A stretch of 64,000 nt of DNA, taken from NCBI GenBank assembly GCA_963729715.1, contig CAVSPA010000007.1:32001-96000 (forward strand), in the 5' to 3' direction. The translations under genes were made by a program, and so were the position numbers. Positions 3,827-32,035 of this stretch are shown piece by piece; position 1 is the stretch's first letter; each line of letters begins with the position of its first letter. The notes beneath the pieces are model-generated. The model was given only the letters and a program-made list of their open reading frames with translations. It made no database searches and was not told where the DNA came from. Origin of the DNA: an uncultured delta proteobacterium (GTDB taxonomy: Bacteria > Desulfobacterota > Syntrophia > Syntrophales > UBA2185).

Positions 3827-4459
3827 TTAACCACCCATTTTAGTTGATTGCCTGATAATGACAATGCTATTTTTACAACCCGGAATAGATCCCTTAACCA
3901 AAATCAGATTCCGCTCCGGCCTTATACCCATCACCAATAAATTTTGTATTGTCTTCCTCACATCGCCCATCTGTCCAGGAAGCTTTTTCCCCTTCAGAAC
4001 TCGCGATGGCTCCGCACTCGCCCCGATAGATCCTGGCGCCCTATGAAACATCGATCCGTGCGTCGCCCTGCCGCCGCTGAAGCCGTGTCTTTTAATAACG
4101 CCGGCAAACCCTTTGCCTTTTGAGGTGCCGACGACATCTATATAATCTCCAATCTTAAACGTATCGACCTTCAGTTCCTGCCCGAGCTCATAGCTATCTG
4201 TAGCAGTTCTGAATTCCTTGAGATTACGGAAAAACCCTTTGTTTGCTTTATTAAGATGGCCCTGCAAGGCCTTCGTCACATTCTTCTGCTTAATCCGTCC
4301 GTATCCCAATTGTAGTGCATCGTAGCCATCATCTTTTTGAGTTTTTTTCTGAACGACAACAGATGGTTCCGCCTCGATGACAGTTACCGGAATAGATTCG
4401 CCGTCTTCCGCAAAAATTTGTGTCATGCCTAATTTCCTGCCGAGGAGCAACTTTTTCAT
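3827..4459 (-). CDS. rplC: 50S ribosomal protein L3
   Basis: [29 protein letters not shown]. Confidence 0.99.
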
Positions 4460-4657
4460 GTTCTTCCTACAATATTTAGCACTCGATGGGCAGTCAAAAG
4501 CTTACGTGCGCGTCAGCCTTTACAACCGCCTGATAGTTCTGCGTATGCCTGATTACTTCAGTATACGACTCTTTAAAAGGGCGCATCATTTCTAACAAAT
4601 GACATCCAATCCCTTCACACATGACAAAGAAGATGCTGATAGTATCTCGTGTATGAT

Positions 4658-21926: not shown

Positions 21927-22006
21927 CGACTTACTCACCAGAACGGGAAACTTCATTTACTTGCTGCAAAAGAGCGGTTAAAATCTCCCAAAAACAAAAG
22001 CCTCTA

Positions 22007-22035
22007 ATGGTAATTCCATAATCAAAATTTGTCAA
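22007..22035 (-). promoter_or_regulatory. sigma70 promoter of the tRNA/secE/rif operon
   Basis: TTGACA-17 bp-TACCAT with an AT-rich upstream tract, about 80 nt before tRNA-Thr. Confidence 0.7.
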
Positions 22036-22438
22036 CTATTATTTTTTCTAGTGTTGTGCTGAAAGATTTACGTATCGGCTCAGCATGTATAAGAAAGTAC
22101 TGTAGGGAAATGATTTCGAGTATTGATGAACACATTGCATAAACTTCACTCTATTGAACATTAGAATCCATCCATAATATCAAAATCAGCAAGGAAATGG
22201 CTCCCCGCATATCATCATTTTGCATGTCGGAGCATCCTCGATCGCTTCTATGCCTATAAAACGTAAACCTCAGTCCCCGGCACGGAAGCAACTCTATGAT
22301 CCTTCCACCCAGGAGGCAAGGGACGTAATATAGCCTCTTATTTTTTCGCGGAGATATGGAGTTGCAAACAACATTACATTTGAACACTTCTTGCCGTCAG
22401 CATTCAGACTAGTTAGCGGCTCCCTTGGCGACCGTTGA

Positions 22439-22984
22439 TTAATGTTCTCCAAAGACCTCAGCTGAAAATTTATAAACTTTGGCATCCTTATCTTTCCATG
22501 CATCCCGCTGAAGTCCGGCTTTGTAACAGGTTTCCTGAAGAAATGTCAAGCTATCCCAATTATATTCCGCGGCCACTTGCGGGAGCAGAAGGCCGGAATG
22601 AAACCCCTTAGTAATGTAAAGGCCGTGCATGCCCACTTCTATTTCATCTATGTTCTTAACCTGTTTCAGCGGGCTCATTACGGATATCTCGACGGTGATG
22701 TTCTTCAGTTCGTCCGGCTTTAATGGAGGAAAGCGTCGATCATCGAAGGCAGCGGCCAGAGCCATTTCTCCCACGGTCTTGTAAAGTGGCTTTCTCGCCT
22801 CGATATAGCCTATACAACCCCTGAGCTGACTGTGCTTTTTAAGCGTTACAAATGCTCCCTTCTTTTCATTCAGTACCTCCGAAGATAAATGAAATTCCGG
22901 GAGAGACCCGCCTGTTAGTCTGGCCTCTATTGTTTTTCTTACAACATCAAGAAGCGCCTTTTTGTCCAAGTCTGTCAACTCCAT
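22439..22984 (-). CDS. amrA: AmmeMemoRadiSam system protein A (AMMECR1 domain)
   Basis: GAFVTL, LRGCIG, D.RFPP, GLLLPQVA, KAGL. Confidence 0.93.
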   Translation of the reverse strand: MELTDLDKKALLDVVRKTIEARLTGGSLPEFHLSSEVLNEKKGAFVTLKKHSQLRGCIGYIEARKPLYKTVGEMALAAAFDDRRFPPLKPDELKNITVEISVMSPLKQVKNIDEIEVGMHGLYITKGFHSGLLLPQVAAEYNWDSLTFLQETCYKAGLQRDAWKDKDAKVYKFSAEVFGEH

Positions 22985-23191
22985 AACGATACCTCCCCAT
23001 CATCCAAATAACATGCATGGGAAAACTTATTACAACTTTCAAGTAAGAGGGTGTAAGTGACTAATTCATTATTTTCTTAATTTGTGATCCGTCCATGGGT
23101 GCCTGCTTGGGGTCCATGTATTCAGGCGGCAGAACATGAGAAATCTACGGCACGATCAACTGCATGTGCAGACACCAAAGCTTTCTAAAAT

Positions 23192-24031
23192 CTAAGAATG
23201 CCGGCCCTTATAAAAGATAGCGGAAGCATAACCAACAACGCTGCTTTTATCTCCCGTTACATCTCCCGAATTGGCGTATTTCAACAATTTCGCCCTATTT
23301 GCACCCAATTTTTCTGAAACCATCATGGTCACGGCTGCCGGCCCTCCGCCGCAGGCCTCGCATAGATCTTTTTCCAAATCTTCGAGGAGACCCCTGCCAT
23401 CCATCTTTTCTATACGCTTGATCACCACCGAATCAAGCTTCACAGCCTGCTCATAAGAGTGGAAATGTGAGAGATCGGTACTTCCCACGATCAAGACATT
23501 CCTGCCATTTATCGCATTCACTATGCTCTCAGCCAGGTTTTCGCATGTTTCGCGGTCTTGCTCCCCCATAATAAGTGGCACAAAGCGAAATTCTCCGAGT
23601 GCCACTTGAAGAAAAGGGAGTTGAATCTCGAGTGAATGTTCCTGGGCATGAGCAGCCGGTATGTGGGATATCATTTCGCTTTGAGACATTATATCGTTTG
23701 CCAAGGTCACATCCACGGAGACAACGCCTAACGGGGTTTCATATCCGCCCCTGTTATATACGGAAACCCCGTGGAAAAATGCCCTATGGCTCGGGCCCAG
23801 AACCAAGACAGCATCAAAGGTTTTTCTGCGTACTATTTTGTAAGCTATTGCGGCAATCTGGCCTGAATAGACATATCCGGCGTGGGGAACAATAAGGCCT
23901 CTGATGCCGCCATCAATCACTACATCAGGCGCGTTGAGAAAAAAGTCCTCTATATCCGCCCGCAAAACCCTGGGGCTGCCAGGATACCAAGTCCCTGCGA
24001 TAACTGACTTTCTGACTTCCTTATCCATCAC
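23192..24031 (-). CDS. amrB: AmmeMemoRadiSam system protein B (MEMO1 family)
   Basis: AGTWYP, PHAGYVYSG, GPSH, EHSLEIQLPFLQ, STDLSH, CG, YANSGDV, VVGYA. Confidence 0.93.
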   Translation of the reverse strand: MMDKEVRKSVIAGTWYPGSPRVLRADIEDFFLNAPDVVIDGGIRGLIVPHAGYVYSGQIAAIAYKIVRRKTFDAVLVLGPSHRAFFHGVSVYNRGGYETPLGVVSVDVTLANDIMSQSEMISHIPAAHAQEHSLEIQLPFLQVALGEFRFVPLIMGEQDRETCENLAESIVNAINGRNVLIVGSTDLSHFHSYEQAVKLDSVVIKRIEKMDGRGLLEDLEKDLCEACGGGPAAVTMMVSEKLGANRAKLLKYANSGDVTGDKSSVVGYASAIFYKGRHS

Positions 24032-24122
24032 GTTTCCTCATTGATGCGTGTCAGCCATCAATTGCGAACAGATATTCACCAATAGCATATTCACCGTATT
24101 TGCTTCACGCAACCCTTATAAA

Positions 24123-26432
24123 CTATTTTAATCTCCATGTTACTCCGTCTGCTGTGTCGGAGATCTCAATTCCCATCGCAAGAAGCTTCTTCCTGATATC
24201 ATCAGAAGCCTTCCAATCACCGATTCTTCTCGCGCGTGCTCTCTCTTCGAGAAGACGAAGCGCATCATCGCTCAATGTCTCTTCCTCAAAATTCATGACC
24301 CCGAGAACGGCATCAATCCTCTTTAGGACATCGAGTACATTGTCCCTTTCCCTTTTACTCAACTGCCCGAGAGAGAGTGGAATACTGACCTTCCCTATAA
24401 ATTCAAAAAGAGAGGCCATTGTATCGGATATGTTGAAATCATCATCCATGGTATCGGAGAATCTCTGTTTGATATCATAGACAAGTTGATCAGCGTCCGG
24501 GTATCCTTCACCTGGAGTATAACGAATCAGGCGCTGAATAAATCTATCCAACTTCTTGACCGTATTTCTCGCCGTCTCTAAGGCACCGGCGGAAAAATTT
24601 AGAGGCTTACGGTAGTGGGTGCCGAGCAGAAAAAACCTGATTTGTCTGCCTCCATATCCCATTGTCTCGAGATCTTCTATGGTCTTGACGTTGTTTAAAG
24701 AGCGGGACATTTTCTTGCCGTCCACCATGACCAGTTCCGTATTGATCCAGTAGTTGGCCATCCGTTTGCCGGTTGCAGCTCTCCCTATGGCCATGACATT
24801 TTCACAGTGCGGAAAGATGACATCGGCTCCGCTCGCATGAATATCAATATTGTCCGCCAGATATTTAAGTGAAATTGCTGCACACTCAAGGTGCCAGCTG
24901 GGCCTCACGTTCCCCCAGCGGGTCTTGAAGTAAATCCCCCTTTTCAATTCATTTAGGGAAGACCTTTTCAGAAGAGTAAAATCCACGGGGCTGTCTTTTT
25001 CATAGTCATCAGATTCAATCGTCTTGCCGGGTTTCACCTTTTTCAGGTCAATGTTGGACAGACGACCATAATCGTCTATTTTTGATATGTCAAAGTAGAC
25101 GGACCTCAATTTTTCGTAGGCGTGGCCCCTCGCCACGAGTTTTTCAACCAGGTTCACCATGGCATCGACATTTTCGCTAGCCCGGGGATAGACCTTCTCT
25201 TGTTTGATATTCAAATTTTTTATGTCGCTGAGGAACCTGCTTGTGCATCTTTCCGTATACGTAGCCAAGTCCATGCTTGCGCGCTCGGCTTCCTTAATGG
25301 ATCTGTCGTTCAAATCAATTATGTTCATAATGTGTCTAACTTTAAAGCCTTTAAAGTCGAGGTAGCGTAGGATCAGATCGGAAACGACAAAACGCCGATA
25401 GTTGCCTACGTGGGGAACTTCATGGACAGTAGGCCCGCAAGAGTGCATCAGAACTTCTTCGGTATTGATTGGTTTGAAGAACTCCTTCTCTCTCGTCGAC
25501 GTGTTGTAGAGACGTAGGGTAGATTGCTTCTTATCGGCAAAGAGTTCCGTACTCAGATACCTCTCTCCGCCGTCAGGAAAAATCACAACAATGAGCCCAT
25601 CTTCCATTTCTCTTGCCTTCTGCATAGCTACATACATGGCAGCTCCTGAACTCATTCCTACAAAAAGACCTTCCTCCCCGGCCAACCTCCGTGCGGTTTC
25701 AAATGCATCTTCGTCGAGGATATTTATTTTCTCATCCAGCCGGTTCTTGTCATAAATGCCCGGTCGGTAAGATTCCTTCATATTTTTCAGACCCTGGATT
25801 TTGTGCTGCAGGTATGGTTCAACACCCACTATCTTGATATCAGGATTATATTCCTTGAGTCGCCTCGAAATACCCATAGCAGTGCCCGTCGTCCCCAAGG
25901 TTGCCACCACCATTGTCACAGCCCCATCCGTCTGCTGCCATATTTCTTCACCAGTACCGTGATAATGAGCCAGCGTATTATCAGCATTATTAAACTGGTC
26001 GGTGCCAAAATATTTTCCTGGATCCTTGAGCATCATGTTATATGCCACTTCGATGGCGCCATCCGTGCCGAGAATTGCCGGGGTCAAGTATAACTCAGCT
26101 CCCATGGCCTTAAGAATTCTCTTTCTTTCCTCACTGGCGGATTCAGACATAGCCAGGCATAATCTGTATCCCTTGGCGGCAGCAATAAGTGCCAGACCGA
26201 TGCCGGTATTGCCGCTCGTTGCCTCGAGGATAATCTTATCGCCCGACAATTCCCCCCTCTTTTCCGCTTCGTTAACCATATAGAGGGCTATCCTGTCCTT
26301 TACGGAGCCTCCTGGGTTAAAATATTCGAGCTTTGCATATATTCTAACCTTCTTGCTCGGATTAAGCTTACGGATTTCCACGAGGGGCGTATTTCCAATA
26401 CTTTCTATAATGCTCTTATACATTCTTTTCAT
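24123..26432 (-). CDS. Cysteine synthase (CysK/CysM-like PLP domain, aa ~1-300) fused to a cysteinyl-tRNA synthetase-like domain (aa ~306-769)
   Basis: N-terminal: NTPL, NPGGSVKDR, EATSGNTG, GTTGT, SSGAA, DGGERYLST. C-terminal: LYNT, CGPTV, HVGN, WHLEC, KMSRS, HYRKPL, DDDFN and the anticodon domain. One continuous ORF. Confidence 0.92.
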   Translation of the reverse strand: MKRMYKSIIESIGNTPLVEIRKLNPSKKVRIYAKLEYFNPGGSVKDRIALYMVNEAEKRGELSGDKIILEATSGNTGIGLALIAAAKGYRLCLAMSESASEERKRILKAMGAELYLTPAILGTDGAIEVAYNMMLKDPGKYFGTDQFNNADNTLAHYHGTGEEIWQQTDGAVTMVVATLGTTGTAMGISRRLKEYNPDIKIVGVEPYLQHKIQGLKNMKESYRPGIYDKNRLDEKINILDEDAFETARRLAGEEGLFVGMSSGAAMYVAMQKAREMEDGLIVVIFPDGGERYLSTELFADKKQSTLRLYNTSTREKEFFKPINTEEVLMHSCGPTVHEVPHVGNYRRFVVSDLILRYLDFKGFKVRHIMNIIDLNDRSIKEAERASMDLATYTERCTSRFLSDIKNLNIKQEKVYPRASENVDAMVNLVEKLVARGHAYEKLRSVYFDISKIDDYGRLSNIDLKKVKPGKTIESDDYEKDSPVDFTLLKRSSLNELKRGIYFKTRWGNVRPSWHLECAAISLKYLADNIDIHASGADVIFPHCENVMAIGRAATGKRMANYWINTELVMVDGKKMSRSLNNVKTIEDLETMGYGGRQIRFFLLGTHYRKPLNFSAGALETARNTVKKLDRFIQRLIRYTPGEGYPDADQLVYDIKQRFSDTMDDDFNISDTMASLFEFIGKVSIPLSLGQLSKRERDNVLDVLKRIDAVLGVMNFEEETLSDDALRLLEERARARRIGDWKASDDIRKKLLAMGIEISDTADGVTWRLK

Positions 26433-26671
26433 GATGGAATTATTGATAAAAATGAATAGATATGGCAGAATTCAAAACGTAAGAGATGACTGCTCCATGA
26501 CGGTCCAAAGGAATTAATTCCCGCTTCATCCTTCTATTACTGTTGCTTTTAATTTATGTGCCAGATTCCTCCTGGAATTTGCAACCTTCGCCCCAGAACA
26601 TGAGCCAAAACCGCCCGCAGTCAACCCGCTTCCCAATTTCCTGGCGGTAATCACAAAAAGTTCCTGATCCT

Positions 26672-27088
26672 TCAACTGTCAAACTTGGGCACAGGAATTT
26701 TGAGGAATTGGACTCCTTCCTCCCTTAGCGCTTCTTCTTCGTTCTCCGTAGTGATGCCTTTGATATTCCGTCCTTCTTCCTCGCCGTGATGAATCTTCAA
26801 GGCCACTTCAGCAAACTTCTTGCCGACATCTTCGAAATTCTTGTCGAGGTATTCGCGAAACAACCTTAGAGCCTTCGGCATGGATGATTCTTCAGCATCC
26901 TTCCTGTTAGATGTCTTGATATCCTTTCCCATAATGGAAATTGTGGAGGGCACCATTCCTACGGCAGAACTTCCACACGCAGGACAGATTATCAGCTTTT
27001 GCGTCTGCTGTTCTTCAAATGAAGTTCTGTCGTTGAACCAGCCTTCGAATTTATGACCCTTTTCACATCTTAGATCGTATATGATCAT
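26672..27088 (-). CDS. DUF1178 family protein (Zn-ribbon)
   Basis: MIIYDLRCEKGHKFEGWF, CPACGS, VGKKFAEVALKIHHGE. Confidence 0.88.
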   Translation of the reverse strand: MIIYDLRCEKGHKFEGWFNDRTSFEEQQTQKLIICPACGSSAVGMVPSTISIMGKDIKTSNRKDAEESSMPKALRLFREYLDKNFEDVGKKFAEVALKIHHGEEEGRNIKGITTENEEEALREEGVQFLKIPVPKFDS

Positions 27089-27127
27089 GACCTATCTTCT
27101 CAAATTAGACATATTGAAAAAATAATG

Positions 27128-27156
27128 TGGACATTTAGAGTTTAATTATATATCTT
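27128..27156 (+). promoter_or_regulatory. Probable sigma70 promoter of tRNA-Pro
   Basis: TGGACA-17 bp-TATCTT ending 24 nt before the tRNA. Confidence 0.5.
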
Positions 27157-27179
27157 CCGAGTATATTGTTACATCATGT

Positions 27180-27256
27180 CGGGATGTGGCCCAGTCCGGT
27201 AGGGCACTGCGTTCGGGACGCAGGAGTCGCGCGTTCAAATCGCGCCATCCCGACCA
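27180..27256 (+). tRNA. tRNA-Pro(CGG)
   Basis: CGGGATGTGGCCCAGTCCGGTAGGGCACTGCGTTCGGGACGCAGGAGTCGCGCGTTCAAATCGCGCCATCCCGACCA. Confidence 0.97.
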
Positions 27257-27323
27257 TTATTTTCCCTCGTGATAATGGAAATATCAGTTTGAATCGCAGT
27301 AGCATGCCGATGCATTGGTATTC

Positions 27324-28538
27324 CTAACCACCACCGACGACAGAGGCCATCTTGAAGATCGGTAGGTACATGCAAATGATCATTCCTCCGACAACTCCCC
27401 CAAGAAAAACCATCATGACAGGTTCCAGGAGTGCTGTCATGGCATCCACAGCCGCATCCACTTCATCGTCGTAAAAATCCGCAATTTTGGCAAGCATCAA
27501 ATCGAGGGCGCCCGTAGCTTCTCCAACAGCGATCATCTGAACCACCATGGGAGGAAATATACCGGTTTCCGAAAGGGGTTCTGCGATGGTTCTCCCCTCA
27601 CTTATACTATGTCTGGTTTTTATTATAGCATTCTCAACGATCTTGTTTCCAGCAGTTTTGCTGACGATAGTTAGCCCCTCGAGAATCGGAACACCGCTGC
27701 CTAACATGGTTGCAAGGGTTCTGGTAAATTTCGCCACTGCAACCTTGTTCAATAACGGCCCGAATACGGGCGCCTTCAAGGTCAAGGCATCAACCATAAG
27801 TCTCCCCTTTTCCGTACGATAATATCTTCTAAAGACATATATAGCGAGGGCAATACCAACGATCATGAAGAGAAAATAACTTTGCATGAACTGGCTGGCG
27901 TTGATAAGAAATTGCGTGGGCGCCGGCAGCTGACCACCCATGCCCTCGAACATCTTCTGAAATACGGGAATAACCTTGAGCAACAGAAGGGAAACGACAC
28001 CTATAGAGATGACAAGAACGCTGGCAGGGTAAGTCATAGCACCCTTGACCCTGCTCTTCAATTTCATCGCCTTTTCCATGTAAGCCGAAAGGCGGTTAAG
28101 AATGACATCGAGTGTACCACCACTCTCTCCAGCAGCCACGAGATTGACAAAAAGATCATCAAAGACCTTGGGGTACTTTCTCAAAGCTTCATGCAAAGTC
28201 GCTCCACCTTCGATCTCTTCCTTTACGGACGTGATGACTTTAGAAAAAGTCTTGTTTTGTTCTTGTTGGGCCAGCAGATCGAGACACTGGATGAGGGGCA
28301 GTCCGGCGTTGATCATGGTCGAAAAAATTCGAGCAAAGACTACTATCTCCTTTTCTTTGACCTTCTGCTTACCAAATCGCAGATAATCGGCCAGGTCCTT
28401 CGGCTTTTTCTTTACGGTGATTGATTTGAAGCCCTGACGACGAAGGAGCCCCCTGACCACACCCTCATCAGTGGCGGTCATCTCTCCTTTTTTCAACTCA
28501 CCTTTTTTTGTCGCCGCTTCCCATAAAAATTCTGCCAT
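27324..28538 (-). CDS. pilC: Type IV pilus inner-membrane platform protein PilC (GspF family)
   Basis: STMINAGLPL, AGESGG.LD, KGAMTYP, VGEATGALD, MYLPIF. Confidence 0.93.
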   Translation of the reverse strand: MAEFLWEAATKKGELKKGEMTATDEGVVRGLLRRQGFKSITVKKKPKDLADYLRFGKQKVKEKEIVVFARIFSTMINAGLPLIQCLDLLAQQEQNKTFSKVITSVKEEIEGGATLHEALRKYPKVFDDLFVNLVAAGESGGTLDVILNRLSAYMEKAMKLKSRVKGAMTYPASVLVISIGVVSLLLLKVIPVFQKMFEGMGGQLPAPTQFLINASQFMQSYFLFMIVGIALAIYVFRRYYRTEKGRLMVDALTLKAPVFGPLLNKVAVAKFTRTLATMLGSGVPILEGLTIVSKTAGNKIVENAIIKTRHSISEGRTIAEPLSETGIFPPMVVQMIAVGEATGALDLMLAKIADFYDDEVDAAVDAMTALLEPVMMVFLGGVVGGMIICMYLPIFKMASVVGGG

Positions 28539-28561
28539 AATTGAAAACCCCTTTCGAAGAC

Positions 28562-29299
28562 TCAGACCTTTCCAAATGTTCCCAATATCTTATAGAGGAT
28601 GATCCCTGCCGCTACCGAAACATTGAGTGAGTCGATCTTGCCCATTGTGGGAACCGCGAGAAGAAAATCACATTTCTTTCTGATGAGCGGTCTCATGCCC
28701 GTTCCCTCGCTGCCCAGTACAAGGCCGATATGCCCGTCATAATCAAAAGAACCAAAATCTCTGCCTGACGCAGGGTCAGTACCATATATCCAAAATCCCT
28801 TCTCCTTCAAGTAGTCAATCGTATTGGACAGGTTAACCACCCTAGCTATGGATGTATGGTTGGCGGCTCCGGCTGATGCCTTTATCACAGTTCCTGTCAC
28901 GGATGCGGAACGATTTTCAGGTATAATGAGCCCATTAGCGCCGCAACAATGAGCTGTCCTTATCAGTGTGCCCAGATTTTGTGGATCTGTAATGCCATCA
29001 AGAATGAGAATCAAATTATATTTAAAATCAGGATGACGATTTGCGATAATATCATCCACACTTGCATACACGAACGGCTCACAGAAGCCTACAACACCCT
29101 GATGAGATCCCTGACCTGCTTTTCTGTCTAAGTAGCTTCTCTCTCTGAATTCTATATGAATTCCCTTTTGCTTCGCCAGATTCAGGACTTTCTGGCAGGC
29201 TTCGCCTCCCCTCCCCTGGGCAACAATGATTTTGCTTACCCTGCCACTCTGACTCTTGAGATCCTCCAAGAGGGGATTAATGCCAAAGATTACCTGCAC
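28562..29299 (-). CDS. rlmB: 23S rRNA G2251 2'-O-methyltransferase RlmB (SpoU family)
   Basis: HQGV, DPQNLG, LGSEG.G, SLNVSVAAG. Confidence 0.9.
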   Translation of the reverse strand: MQVIFGINPLLEDLKSQSGRVSKIIVAQGRGGEACQKVLNLAKQKGIHIEFRERSYLDRKAGQGSHQGVVGFCEPFVYASVDDIIANRHPDFKYNLILILDGITDPQNLGTLIRTAHCCGANGLIIPENRSASVTGTVIKASAGAANHTSIARVVNLSNTIDYLKEKGFWIYGTDPASGRDFGSFDYDGHIGLVLGSEGTGMRPLIRKKCDFLLAVPTMGKIDSLNVSVAAGIILYKILGTFGKV

Positions 29300-31922: not shown

Positions 31923-32035
31923 TACGAACTCCTAATCAATACCAAAAAATAAATGTGGCTTTAATTTGGCTGCAAAATAGGGCTTACTCAAATCCTTAAT
32001 TAATAAATAGGCCATAACCTTCTTCGGACATGATC

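Follow-up and report, generated by a model that had tools for sequence, protein, structure and literature searches.

It was found that an uncultured delta proteobacterium of the order Syntrophales (UBA2185) has a CysM-type cysteine synthase fused, within one open reading frame (ORF), to a full-length but remodelled paralogue of cysteinyl-tRNA synthetase (CysRS). The ORF list and the translation place the gene on the minus strand at 24123-26432 of the window, that is, the whole stretch of 64,000 nucleotides analysed here (positions 32,001 to 96,000 of contig CAVSPA010000007.1, assembly GCA_963729715.1). It has 769 codons and a stop codon. The original prediction, made from the same stretch alone, had described this 769-residue fusion ORF, which is correct with the amendment that it lies on the minus strand. 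It had also proposed that newly made cysteine is channelled to tRNA-Cys, or that a precursor is charged and converted on the tRNA. The fused protein is not the housekeeping CysRS, and it is not a class I counterpart of SepRS/SepCysS either. The best explanation, to which I give about an even chance, is that the CysRS-derived part is a tRNA-Cys-docking module that couples cysteine synthesis to the status of tRNA-Cys and/or free cysteine.

Architecture and integrity of the fusion gene

From the N-terminus to the C-terminus, the Pfam domains are PALP, tRNA-synt_1e, DALR_2, and CysS_C. The CysM-type cysteine synthase domain, which depends on pyridoxal phosphate (PLP), spans residues 10-287 (25572-26405, on the minus strand like all features of the gene; PALP, 231 bits). 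A short linker, ELFADKKQST (residues 296-305; 25518-25547), separates the end of the CysM alignment from residue 306, to which residue 2 of Escherichia coli CysRS is aligned. The rest of the protein consists of a CysRS-like class I catalytic core with a connective peptide (CP) insertion (residues 319-622; 24567-25478; tRNA-synt_1e, 287 bits), a helical DALR_2 domain (residues 657-713; 24294-24464; 25.4 bits, cut-off 22), and a CysS_C anticodon-binding domain (residues 720-767; 24132-24275; 32.4 bits). An AlphaFold2 model of the whole chain, made with 59 aligned fusions, has a mean predicted local distance difference test score (pLDDT) of 89.3 and a predicted template modelling score of 0.70. 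The pLDDT is 73-76 across residues 291-310, which include the linker, and below 50 across residues 468-480. A predicted complex of the PALP half (residues 1-300) with the CysRS-like half (residues 304-769) gave a median of 0.25 against a mark of 0.32, without controls, and is uninformative either way.

A stop codon or a frameshift at the junction had been named as something that would undo the fusion. Contigs from three public DNA runs bridge the junction (approximately 25518-25547), and none of them has an indel there. The contig of run X1, which is possibly the source sample, spans 25366-25822 with no differences; that of run X2 spans 24323-26177 with no gaps; and that of run X3 spans 25299-26583 with gaps confined to the region upstream of the start codon. 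Moreover, more than 120 full-length relatives of 750-800 residues, at 70-95% identity, come from independent assemblies, and the fusion was found in 122 of the 301 genomes surveyed below. Thus, the frame of the fusion is not an assembly artefact. One metatranscriptome run contains six 151-base contigs, 90-97% alike, which fall on both halves and never across the junction; being present in an RNA library does not prove that a gene is transcribed. The word shares in other public runs were small, and no habitat is claimed for this reason.

The synthase half

All the strings quoted in the original prediction, SVKDR, TSGNT, IQGLKNMKESYRPGIYD, and ELFADKKQST, are present in the translation. The PLP lysine is K45 in SVKDR, the carboxylate-binding TSGNT loop occupies residues 72-76, and the GLKNM loop (residues 214-218) is part of IQGLKNMKESYRPGIYD (residues 212-228). 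Of the NCBIfam models, TIGR01136 for the cysK/M subfamily gives 366 bits (above its cut-off of 344), TIGR01138 for the cysM equivalog gives 380.3 bits (narrowly below 394.2), and TIGR01139 for cysK gives 319 bits (below 351). A segment of this half had been described as resembling CysM more than CysK, and for the half as a whole the scores of 380 and 319 bits agree. The motifs are highly conserved in the family: among 277 proteins of at least 700 residues, the PLP lysine is retained in all 277, TSGNT in 274 (the remaining three have SSGNT), and GLKNM in 267. Judging from these motifs, the CysM-type synthase half is catalytically intact.

The best solved relatives of residues 8-301 (267 bits) are the CysM enzymes of E. 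coli and Salmonella (PDB 2BHS, 2JC3, 2V03). The fusion shares with them the PLP lysine, the Asn loop, and a TIGR01136 score above the cut-off. It differs from them in its 470-residue C-terminal module, in just missing the cysM equivalog cut-off, and in having GLKNM where E. coli CysM has GIRRW; K216, the lysine of GLKNM, aligns with R210 of the E. coli enzyme. Since the TSGNT carboxylate-binding loop is kept, the substrate is likely to be a free amino acid and not an aminoacyl-tRNA ester.

The CysRS-like half

The claim of a full-length CysRS fold holds true. The cysS equivalog model TIGR00435 matches with 389 bits (cut-off 340) over model positions 1-464 of 466. The active site is remodelled, though. 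When residues are numbered as in E. coli CysRS through an alignment to 1li5, the fusion keeps C28, G29, W205, C209, and H234. It has T68 changed to I, K73 to R, the GGG at 225-227 to ASG, H235 to C, E238 to V, and KMSKS to KMSRS, and its HIGH motif is HVGN. In E. coli CysRS, C28, C209, H234, E238, T68, and W205 form the zinc/cysteine pocket. The pocket is incompletely canonical: C28, W205, C209, and H234 are kept, and T68 and E238 (and H235) are altered.

A MAFFT alignment of 375 sequences was made from the fusions, 86 cluster representatives of stand-alone CysRS, and the two other CysRS-type copies of this genome. The 86 stand-alone enzymes are near-invariant at CG, H-x-G-[NH], TD, WHC, H-x-G-G, HH-x-NE, and KM[SA]KS, and the second lysine of KMSKS is present in 86 of 86. 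At least 17 positions that are at least 90% conserved in canonical CysRS are substituted in the fusion. Asn is the commonest fourth residue of HIGH in the stand-alone enzymes, and thus HVGN is not in itself a defect. Compared with canonical CysRS (E. coli CysS, PDB 1LI5/1U0B; the closest solved chain is 8QHP), the fusion has the same order of Rossmann core, CP insertion, helical DALR domain, and anticodon domain, and it keeps C28, W205, C209, H234, and six invariant residues of the anticodon domain. It differs in being a PLP-enzyme-fused paralogue of a separate clade with T68I, H235C, E238V, and KMSRS, which coexists with a canonical copy.

In the Syntrophales-type clade (120 sequences), a derived set of residues is fixed: [IV] at T68, HASG, HCENV, and KMSRS. 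H37, G39, and KMSRS are invariant in 120 of 120 sequences, while the fourth position of HIGH is N, S, or H. The Desulfobacterales-/Desulfobulbales-type fusions keep C28, T68, C209, H234, H235, and E238, and their HIGH and KMSKS motifs are scrambled. In the Desulfovibrionales-type fusions (120 sequences), C28, HIGH, T68, C209, and KMSKS are gone. In sister lineages where HIGH, KMSKS, and the zinc cysteines have been lost, the CysRS half cannot activate amino acids.

Phylogeny and retention of the presumed tRNA-contacting parts

A tree of 158 CysRS-type domains was computed with FastTree (LG+gamma). For this tree, 12 of the 120 Syntrophales-clade sequences and 18 of the 120 Desulfovibrionales-clade sequences were kept, and four proteins without a CysRS part were dropped. 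The CysRS-like domains of the fusions group in a single clade of 69 tips, which is separate from canonical CysRS and has a Shimodaira-Hasegawa-like support of 0.968. The sister of this clade is a truncated third CysRS paralogue of the Syntrophales genome. The clade takes in 61 of the 63 tree proteins of at least 700 residues. It also includes eight shorter proteins, at least four of which are fusion fragments: P0134, P0135, and P0142 have a PALP tail, and P0136 clusters with a 782-residue protein. Two long proteins fall outside the clade: P0124 and P0164, the latter of which is no PALP fusion.

In P0164 (858 residues, from a metagenome), a partial CysRS precedes a complete canonical one, so that a single frame holds a tandem duplication. 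P0124 (768 residues, from a metagenome-assembled genome (MAG) of Nanoarchaeota) is a PALP-CysRS fusion with fully canonical CysRS motifs, and it groups with stand-alone CysRS. It may be either an independent fusion or a little-diverged transfer.

Which parts of the module have been kept? Retention was computed over 73 columns that are at least 90% conserved in the 86 canonical enzymes, with the domain limits of the E. coli structure. In the Desulfovibrionales-type clade, the most degenerate one, retention is 0.42 in the N-terminal half of the Rossmann fold, 0.30 in its C-terminal half with KMSKS, 0.74 in the CP domain, 0.94 in the stem-contact (SC)-fold/helical part, and 1.0 in the anticodon domain. 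Six residues of the anticodon domain, R731, D744, R747, G754, D759, and G763 (R423, D436, R439, G446, D451, and G455 in E. coli), are kept at 83-100% in every fusion clade. This pattern suggests that selection keeps the tRNA-contacting surface, and not the activation site, across the family.

Distribution and gene content

I surveyed the phylum with an even sample of 301 genomes, counting fusions at E up to 1e-120. The fusion is present in 122 genomes (107 of the 259 high-quality genomes and 79 of the 201 genera), almost always as one frame of approximately 770-800 residues, and is thus common in bacteria of the sulfate-reducer type. One genome (G326:C15:206482-208771) encodes the halves in two frames next to each other (residues 1-343 and 343-762). 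The CysRS-like half of the complete genome G061 (C1:2736760-2739059) is interrupted, with a 704-residue frame followed by a 211-residue frame containing TGA. It had been guessed that similar fusions were already annotated, and they are, widely, as 'cysteine--tRNA ligase' or 'cysteine synthase'; the Desulfovibrionales-type fusions bear the latter name. A canonical CysRS is found in 10 of 10 diverse fusion-bearing genomes (530-602 bits). Within the order, 35 of 41 genomes have the fusion type and 38 have a canonical CysRS, the three others being fragmented MAGs.

The 301 genomes were then cross-tabulated for cysK/M (TIGR01136, E up to 1e-50) and cysE (TIGR01172, E up to 1e-25). In 60 genomes, cysK/M is matched by nothing but the fusion, and just three of these have a cysE-like match. 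Another cysK/M accompanies the fusion in 62 genomes, with a cysE-like match in 57, and 139 of the 179 genomes without the fusion have a cysE-like match. The 57 fusion-only genomes without a cysE-like gene span more than 25 families, although related genomes are not independent. Coordinates were checked in five single-contig genomes from five families. In each of them, the fusion frame contains the sole TIGR01136 match (E up to 1e-10), and a canonical CysRS is present. None of the five has a cysE above the cut-off (there is one 44-bit match), and none has SepRS. In many lineages, where the fusion is the sole cysK/M match and no cysE-like gene was found, the fused enzyme seems to have a housekeeping role without O-acetylserine, which points to O-phosphoserine. 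There, the synthase half probably acts as an O-phosphoserine sulfhydrylase of the housekeeping kind.

O-phosphoserine sulfhydrylases such as Mycobacterium tuberculosis CysM and Aeropyrum pernix OPSS appear in the reference list of PMC9855970. They are CysM-type enzymes that need no serine acetyltransferase (SAT), and the 57 of 60 fusion-only genomes without a cysE-like gene may be compared with this. A difference is that no ThiS/MoaD-type sulfur-carrier gene was seen among the 96 ORFs scanned near fusions. O-phosphoserine was one of the precursors considered in the original prediction, which had likened the loop segment to that of mycobacterial O-phosphoserine sulfhydrylase with its LRNM arginine. 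The gene content favours O-phosphoserine as a substrate; its use as a precursor charged on the tRNA is very unlikely.

A 'long' SAT-like gene was also found in the phylum sample. It scores 160-180 bits against the cysE cut-off of 211, has frames of approximately 320-350 residues, and often adjoins cysK (for example, G085:C25:45418-46870, G182:C101:5655-7142, and G326:C15:84294-85881). Since it falls under the cut-off, annotation based on NCBIfam would miss it as cysE.

Other cysteine and tRNA-Cys genes of the genome

The source assembly has 19 contigs and 3.76 Mb. A check for separate cysS and cysE genes had been suggested. A separate canonical cysS lies on the same contig approximately 42 kb away (564 bits, compared with 391 for the fusion; a 493-residue frame, all canonical motifs). 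The genome also has a canonical cysK (467 bits) and a SAT-like gene of 160 bits, below the cysE cut-off of 211, which adjoins nifS and nifU. With a canonical cysS and a canonical cysK present, the genome has both a CysRS and a cysteine synthase besides the fusion, and this gene set speaks against a dedicated channelled or on-tRNA pathway. SepRS was not found in the genome (best match 26 bits). ARAGORN predicts 48 tRNA genes in the 19 contigs, including one tRNA-Cys(GCA) and one tRNA-Sec. A second, dedicated tRNA-Cys is ruled out by this count; with a single tRNA-Cys(GCA) gene, the fusion and the canonical CysRS would share the tRNA.

The third CysRS paralogue, the sister of the fusion clade, is a 405-residue protein encoded on a different contig from the fusion (G000:C3:136251-137480, minus strand; L098:8267-9484). 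It scores 300 bits over model positions 1-408, has no anticodon-binding domain, and keeps HIGN and KMSKS with C209 changed to Asp. Its neighbours encode a MATE transporter, a response regulator with PilZ, a 574-residue glycosyltransferase, the SAT-like protein, NifS, and NifU. The type occurs in 14 of the 41 genomes of the order. This protein could be a cysteine ligase for a non-tRNA acceptor.

Proposed function and alternatives

In the proposed mechanism, the CysM-type domain would make cysteine from a free substrate, probably O-phosphoserine, and sulfide. The CysRS-derived module would dock tRNA-Cys via the anticodon domain, the CP domain, and the stem-contact region, and docking, not amino acid activation, would be the property kept in every lineage. 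The Syntrophales-type module probably binds zinc and cysteine as well, and perhaps ATP. How fast cysteine is made, or what becomes of it, may be tied by the module to the state of tRNA-Cys and/or of free cysteine. Since an O-phosphoserine-fed pathway has no SAT feedback point, control would have to sit on the sulfhydrylase. The architecture, the paralogy, the pattern of kept and lost residues, and the gene content are observed; tRNA binding, O-phosphoserine use, and any allostery, including its direction, are inferred. A more specific version can be put forward tentatively: the fusion may be a protein-level counterpart of the T-box. The module would read the GCA anticodon and the acceptor arm of tRNA-Cys and allosterically switch the O-phosphoserine sulfhydrylase, so that the charging state sets the rate of cysteine synthesis in SAT-less Desulfobacterota, and the Syntrophales module may also charge nascent cysteine. 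The logic of a coupling or sensing module resembles that of HisZ acting on HisG, of the HisRS-like domain of GCN2, and of the T-box of cysES.

Several observations weigh against a tRNA-docking module that couples the two processes. What speaks for docking itself is one kind of evidence, residue retention. The invariance of H37, G39, and KMSRS in 120 sequences suggests that ATP handling is under selection, and the module may then be an active synthetase. The Syntrophales genome has CysK and a SAT-like gene, so that the fusion is not its sole cysteine route. All five sampled genomes that have a stand-alone CysM-like gene without cysE and without the fusion have no CysRS-like paralogue; the module is thus not obligatory for such synthases. 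Finally, the neighbourhood gives no functional hint. At 24 loci, 138 ORFs were computed and the 96 nearest were scanned, and none of the 96 is of a sulfur-assimilation, serine-pathway, or ThiS/MoaD type.

The main alternative, possible though on balance doubtful, is that in the Syntrophales-type clade the C-terminal domain is an active second CysRS, which activates the cysteine made next door with ATP and charges tRNA-Cys with it, such channelling keeping free cysteine low. The coexistence of a canonical CysRS in nearly all genomes tells against it, as do the substitution of at least 17 canonical positions (T68, H235, E238, and the second lysine of KMSKS among them) and the sister clades, which have dropped the activation motifs and kept the module. 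An active enzyme would nevertheless fit the full-length architecture and the TIGR00435 score above the cut-off (389 against 340), the retention of C28, W205, C209, and H234, the fixed H37, G39, and KMSRS of the 120-sequence clade, an Asn at the fourth HIGH position as is commonest in the 86 stand-alone enzymes, and the intact anticodon domain. Charging of O-phosphoserine, O-acetylserine, or serine on tRNA-Cys followed by conversion in the PLP domain, as in a class I analogue of SepRS/SepCysS, is very unlikely indeed. A PLP enzyme and a tRNA-Cys-binding module do share one chain, and in the absence of SepRS the genome has no competing tRNA-dependent route. However, the zinc-thiolate pocket of C28, C209, and H234 argues for cysteine and not for an oxygen side chain, the TSGNT loop in 274 of 277 proteins is as expected for free amino acids, and the many lineages without HIGH or KMSKS cannot charge anything. 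Moreover, the PALP fold differs from that of SepCysS, which is of fold type I. A dedicated channelled or on-tRNA pathway, as originally proposed, was therefore not borne out, given a diverged paralogue, motif loss in its sister lineages, and a conserved TSGNT loop.

The CysRS half might serve no tRNA-linked purpose, being just a scaffold for structure or oligomerisation, or a relic in slow decay. The decay of catalytic motifs in several lineages, the interrupted module of the complete genome G061, and the stand-alone CysM-like enzymes without the module would fit this. This is unlikely, because a full-length module persists in 122 of 301 genomes and 79 of 201 genera, and because the residues of the anticodon and CP domains, which a relic would lose first, remain at canonical identity. 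New chemistry, either the joining of cysteine to a different acceptor in the manner of MshC or the making of cysteine persulfide, seems quite improbable. A zinc site with three protein ligands and the change at E238 are reminiscent of MshC, but TIGR03447 (MshC) reaches 184 bits, far from its cut-off of 485. The fusion keeps its anticodon domain, whereas the MshC model stops at fusion residue 712, in agreement with MshC presumably having no such domain. PLP-dependent persulfide synthase activity of CysRS has been reported, and of the four lysines described as necessary for it in the accessible part of that report, two (K73 and K269) are Arg here and K76 varies in the clade (PMC10655014). The persulfide idea was set aside on account of the two replaced lysines.

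Relation to known systems

The tRNA-docking reading invites comparison with other synthetase paralogues. HisZ is a HisRS paralogue regulating HisG, described as a regulatory paralogue in amino acid biosynthesis in the accessible part of a 2022 review of synthetase duplications (PMC9437257). As in the case of HisZ, an aminoacyl-tRNA synthetase paralogue is attached to an enzyme that makes its cognate amino acid, and the adenylation motifs are lost in many members of the fusion family. Unlike HisZ, the fusion is covalent and involves the last enzyme of the pathway and not the first. It also keeps its tRNA-binding parts, the ATP motifs are partly kept in the Syntrophales-type clade, and regulation by the fusion is only proposed. 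The accessible part of the same review gives CysRS* and MshC as the only CysRS paralogues and does not mention cysteine synthase (PMC9437257). CysRS* is described there, and in the part of PMC5389517 that is accessible, as having no anticodon domain. The fusion resembles CysRS* and MshC as a diverged CysRS paralogue coexisting with the housekeeping enzyme, and differs from them in that its module retains the anticodon domain. SepRS/SepCysS carries out tRNA-dependent cysteine synthesis (PMC8762117, accessible in part) and likewise brings cysteine formation and tRNA-Cys together in one system. In contrast, the synthetase part of the fusion is class I and CysRS-like, not related to class II PheRS, its PLP domain has the CysM-type PALP fold with an intact free-carboxylate loop, and the genome is without SepRS.

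Full-text literature searches, with subscription journals outside their coverage, gave no description of a PALP-CysRS fusion; within the same coverage, the earlier statement that no biochemical characterisation was known also stands. On the features described above, the fusion appears to be a case of a synthetase paralogue drawn into making the amino acid that it is named for, with a function that is proposed only. If the tRNA-docking reading is right, much of the Desulfobacterota (122 of the 301 genomes sampled) would make cysteine by means of an enzyme that has a tRNA-Cys reader attached. In about half of the fusion genomes, no other cysteine synthase is recognisable, and a serine acetyltransferase was not found next to the fusion in the gene set. 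The fusion would be the first enzyme of the cysteine pathway to be controlled through, or coupled to, a tRNA by way of a domain derived from a synthetase. With HisZ as the first case, it would be the second in which amino acid biosynthesis has recruited a synthetase paralogue. The active sites of the family also run from near-canonical to fully degenerate, a natural series in which the change of a synthetase into a pseudo-enzyme can be studied. The annotation is corrected as well: these proteins are filed under 'cysteine--tRNA ligase' or under 'cysteine synthase', and a metabolic model that relies on such names will miscount both functions.

Gene neighbourhood

The contexts of the fusion loci are of the housekeeping kind. 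An Rfam search (E up to 1) for an upstream RNA regulator across 22000-29000 of the window gave a tRNA-Pro only, and promoter and terminator scans at the locus were not usefully above shuffled sequences. In the window, the regions on either side of the fusion (22439-24031 and 26672-27088) hold a DUF1178 gene upstream of it and genes for Memo-like and AMMECR1 proteins downstream. A Smithella locus likewise has DUF1178 and AMMECR1 flanking the fusion (L018:268-684 and 4005-4553). Memo-like and AMMECR1 proteins are two parts of the AmmeMemoRadiSam trio, and no radical SAM partner was seen beside them here. An ORF of approximately 320-330 residues without a Pfam match (E up to 1e-5) follows the fusion in L029, L035, L026, L040, and L045. 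In six loci of the Desulfobacterales type (L019, L025, L029, L035, L038, and L049), tmk, encoding thymidylate kinase, lies directly upstream of the fusion on the same strand.

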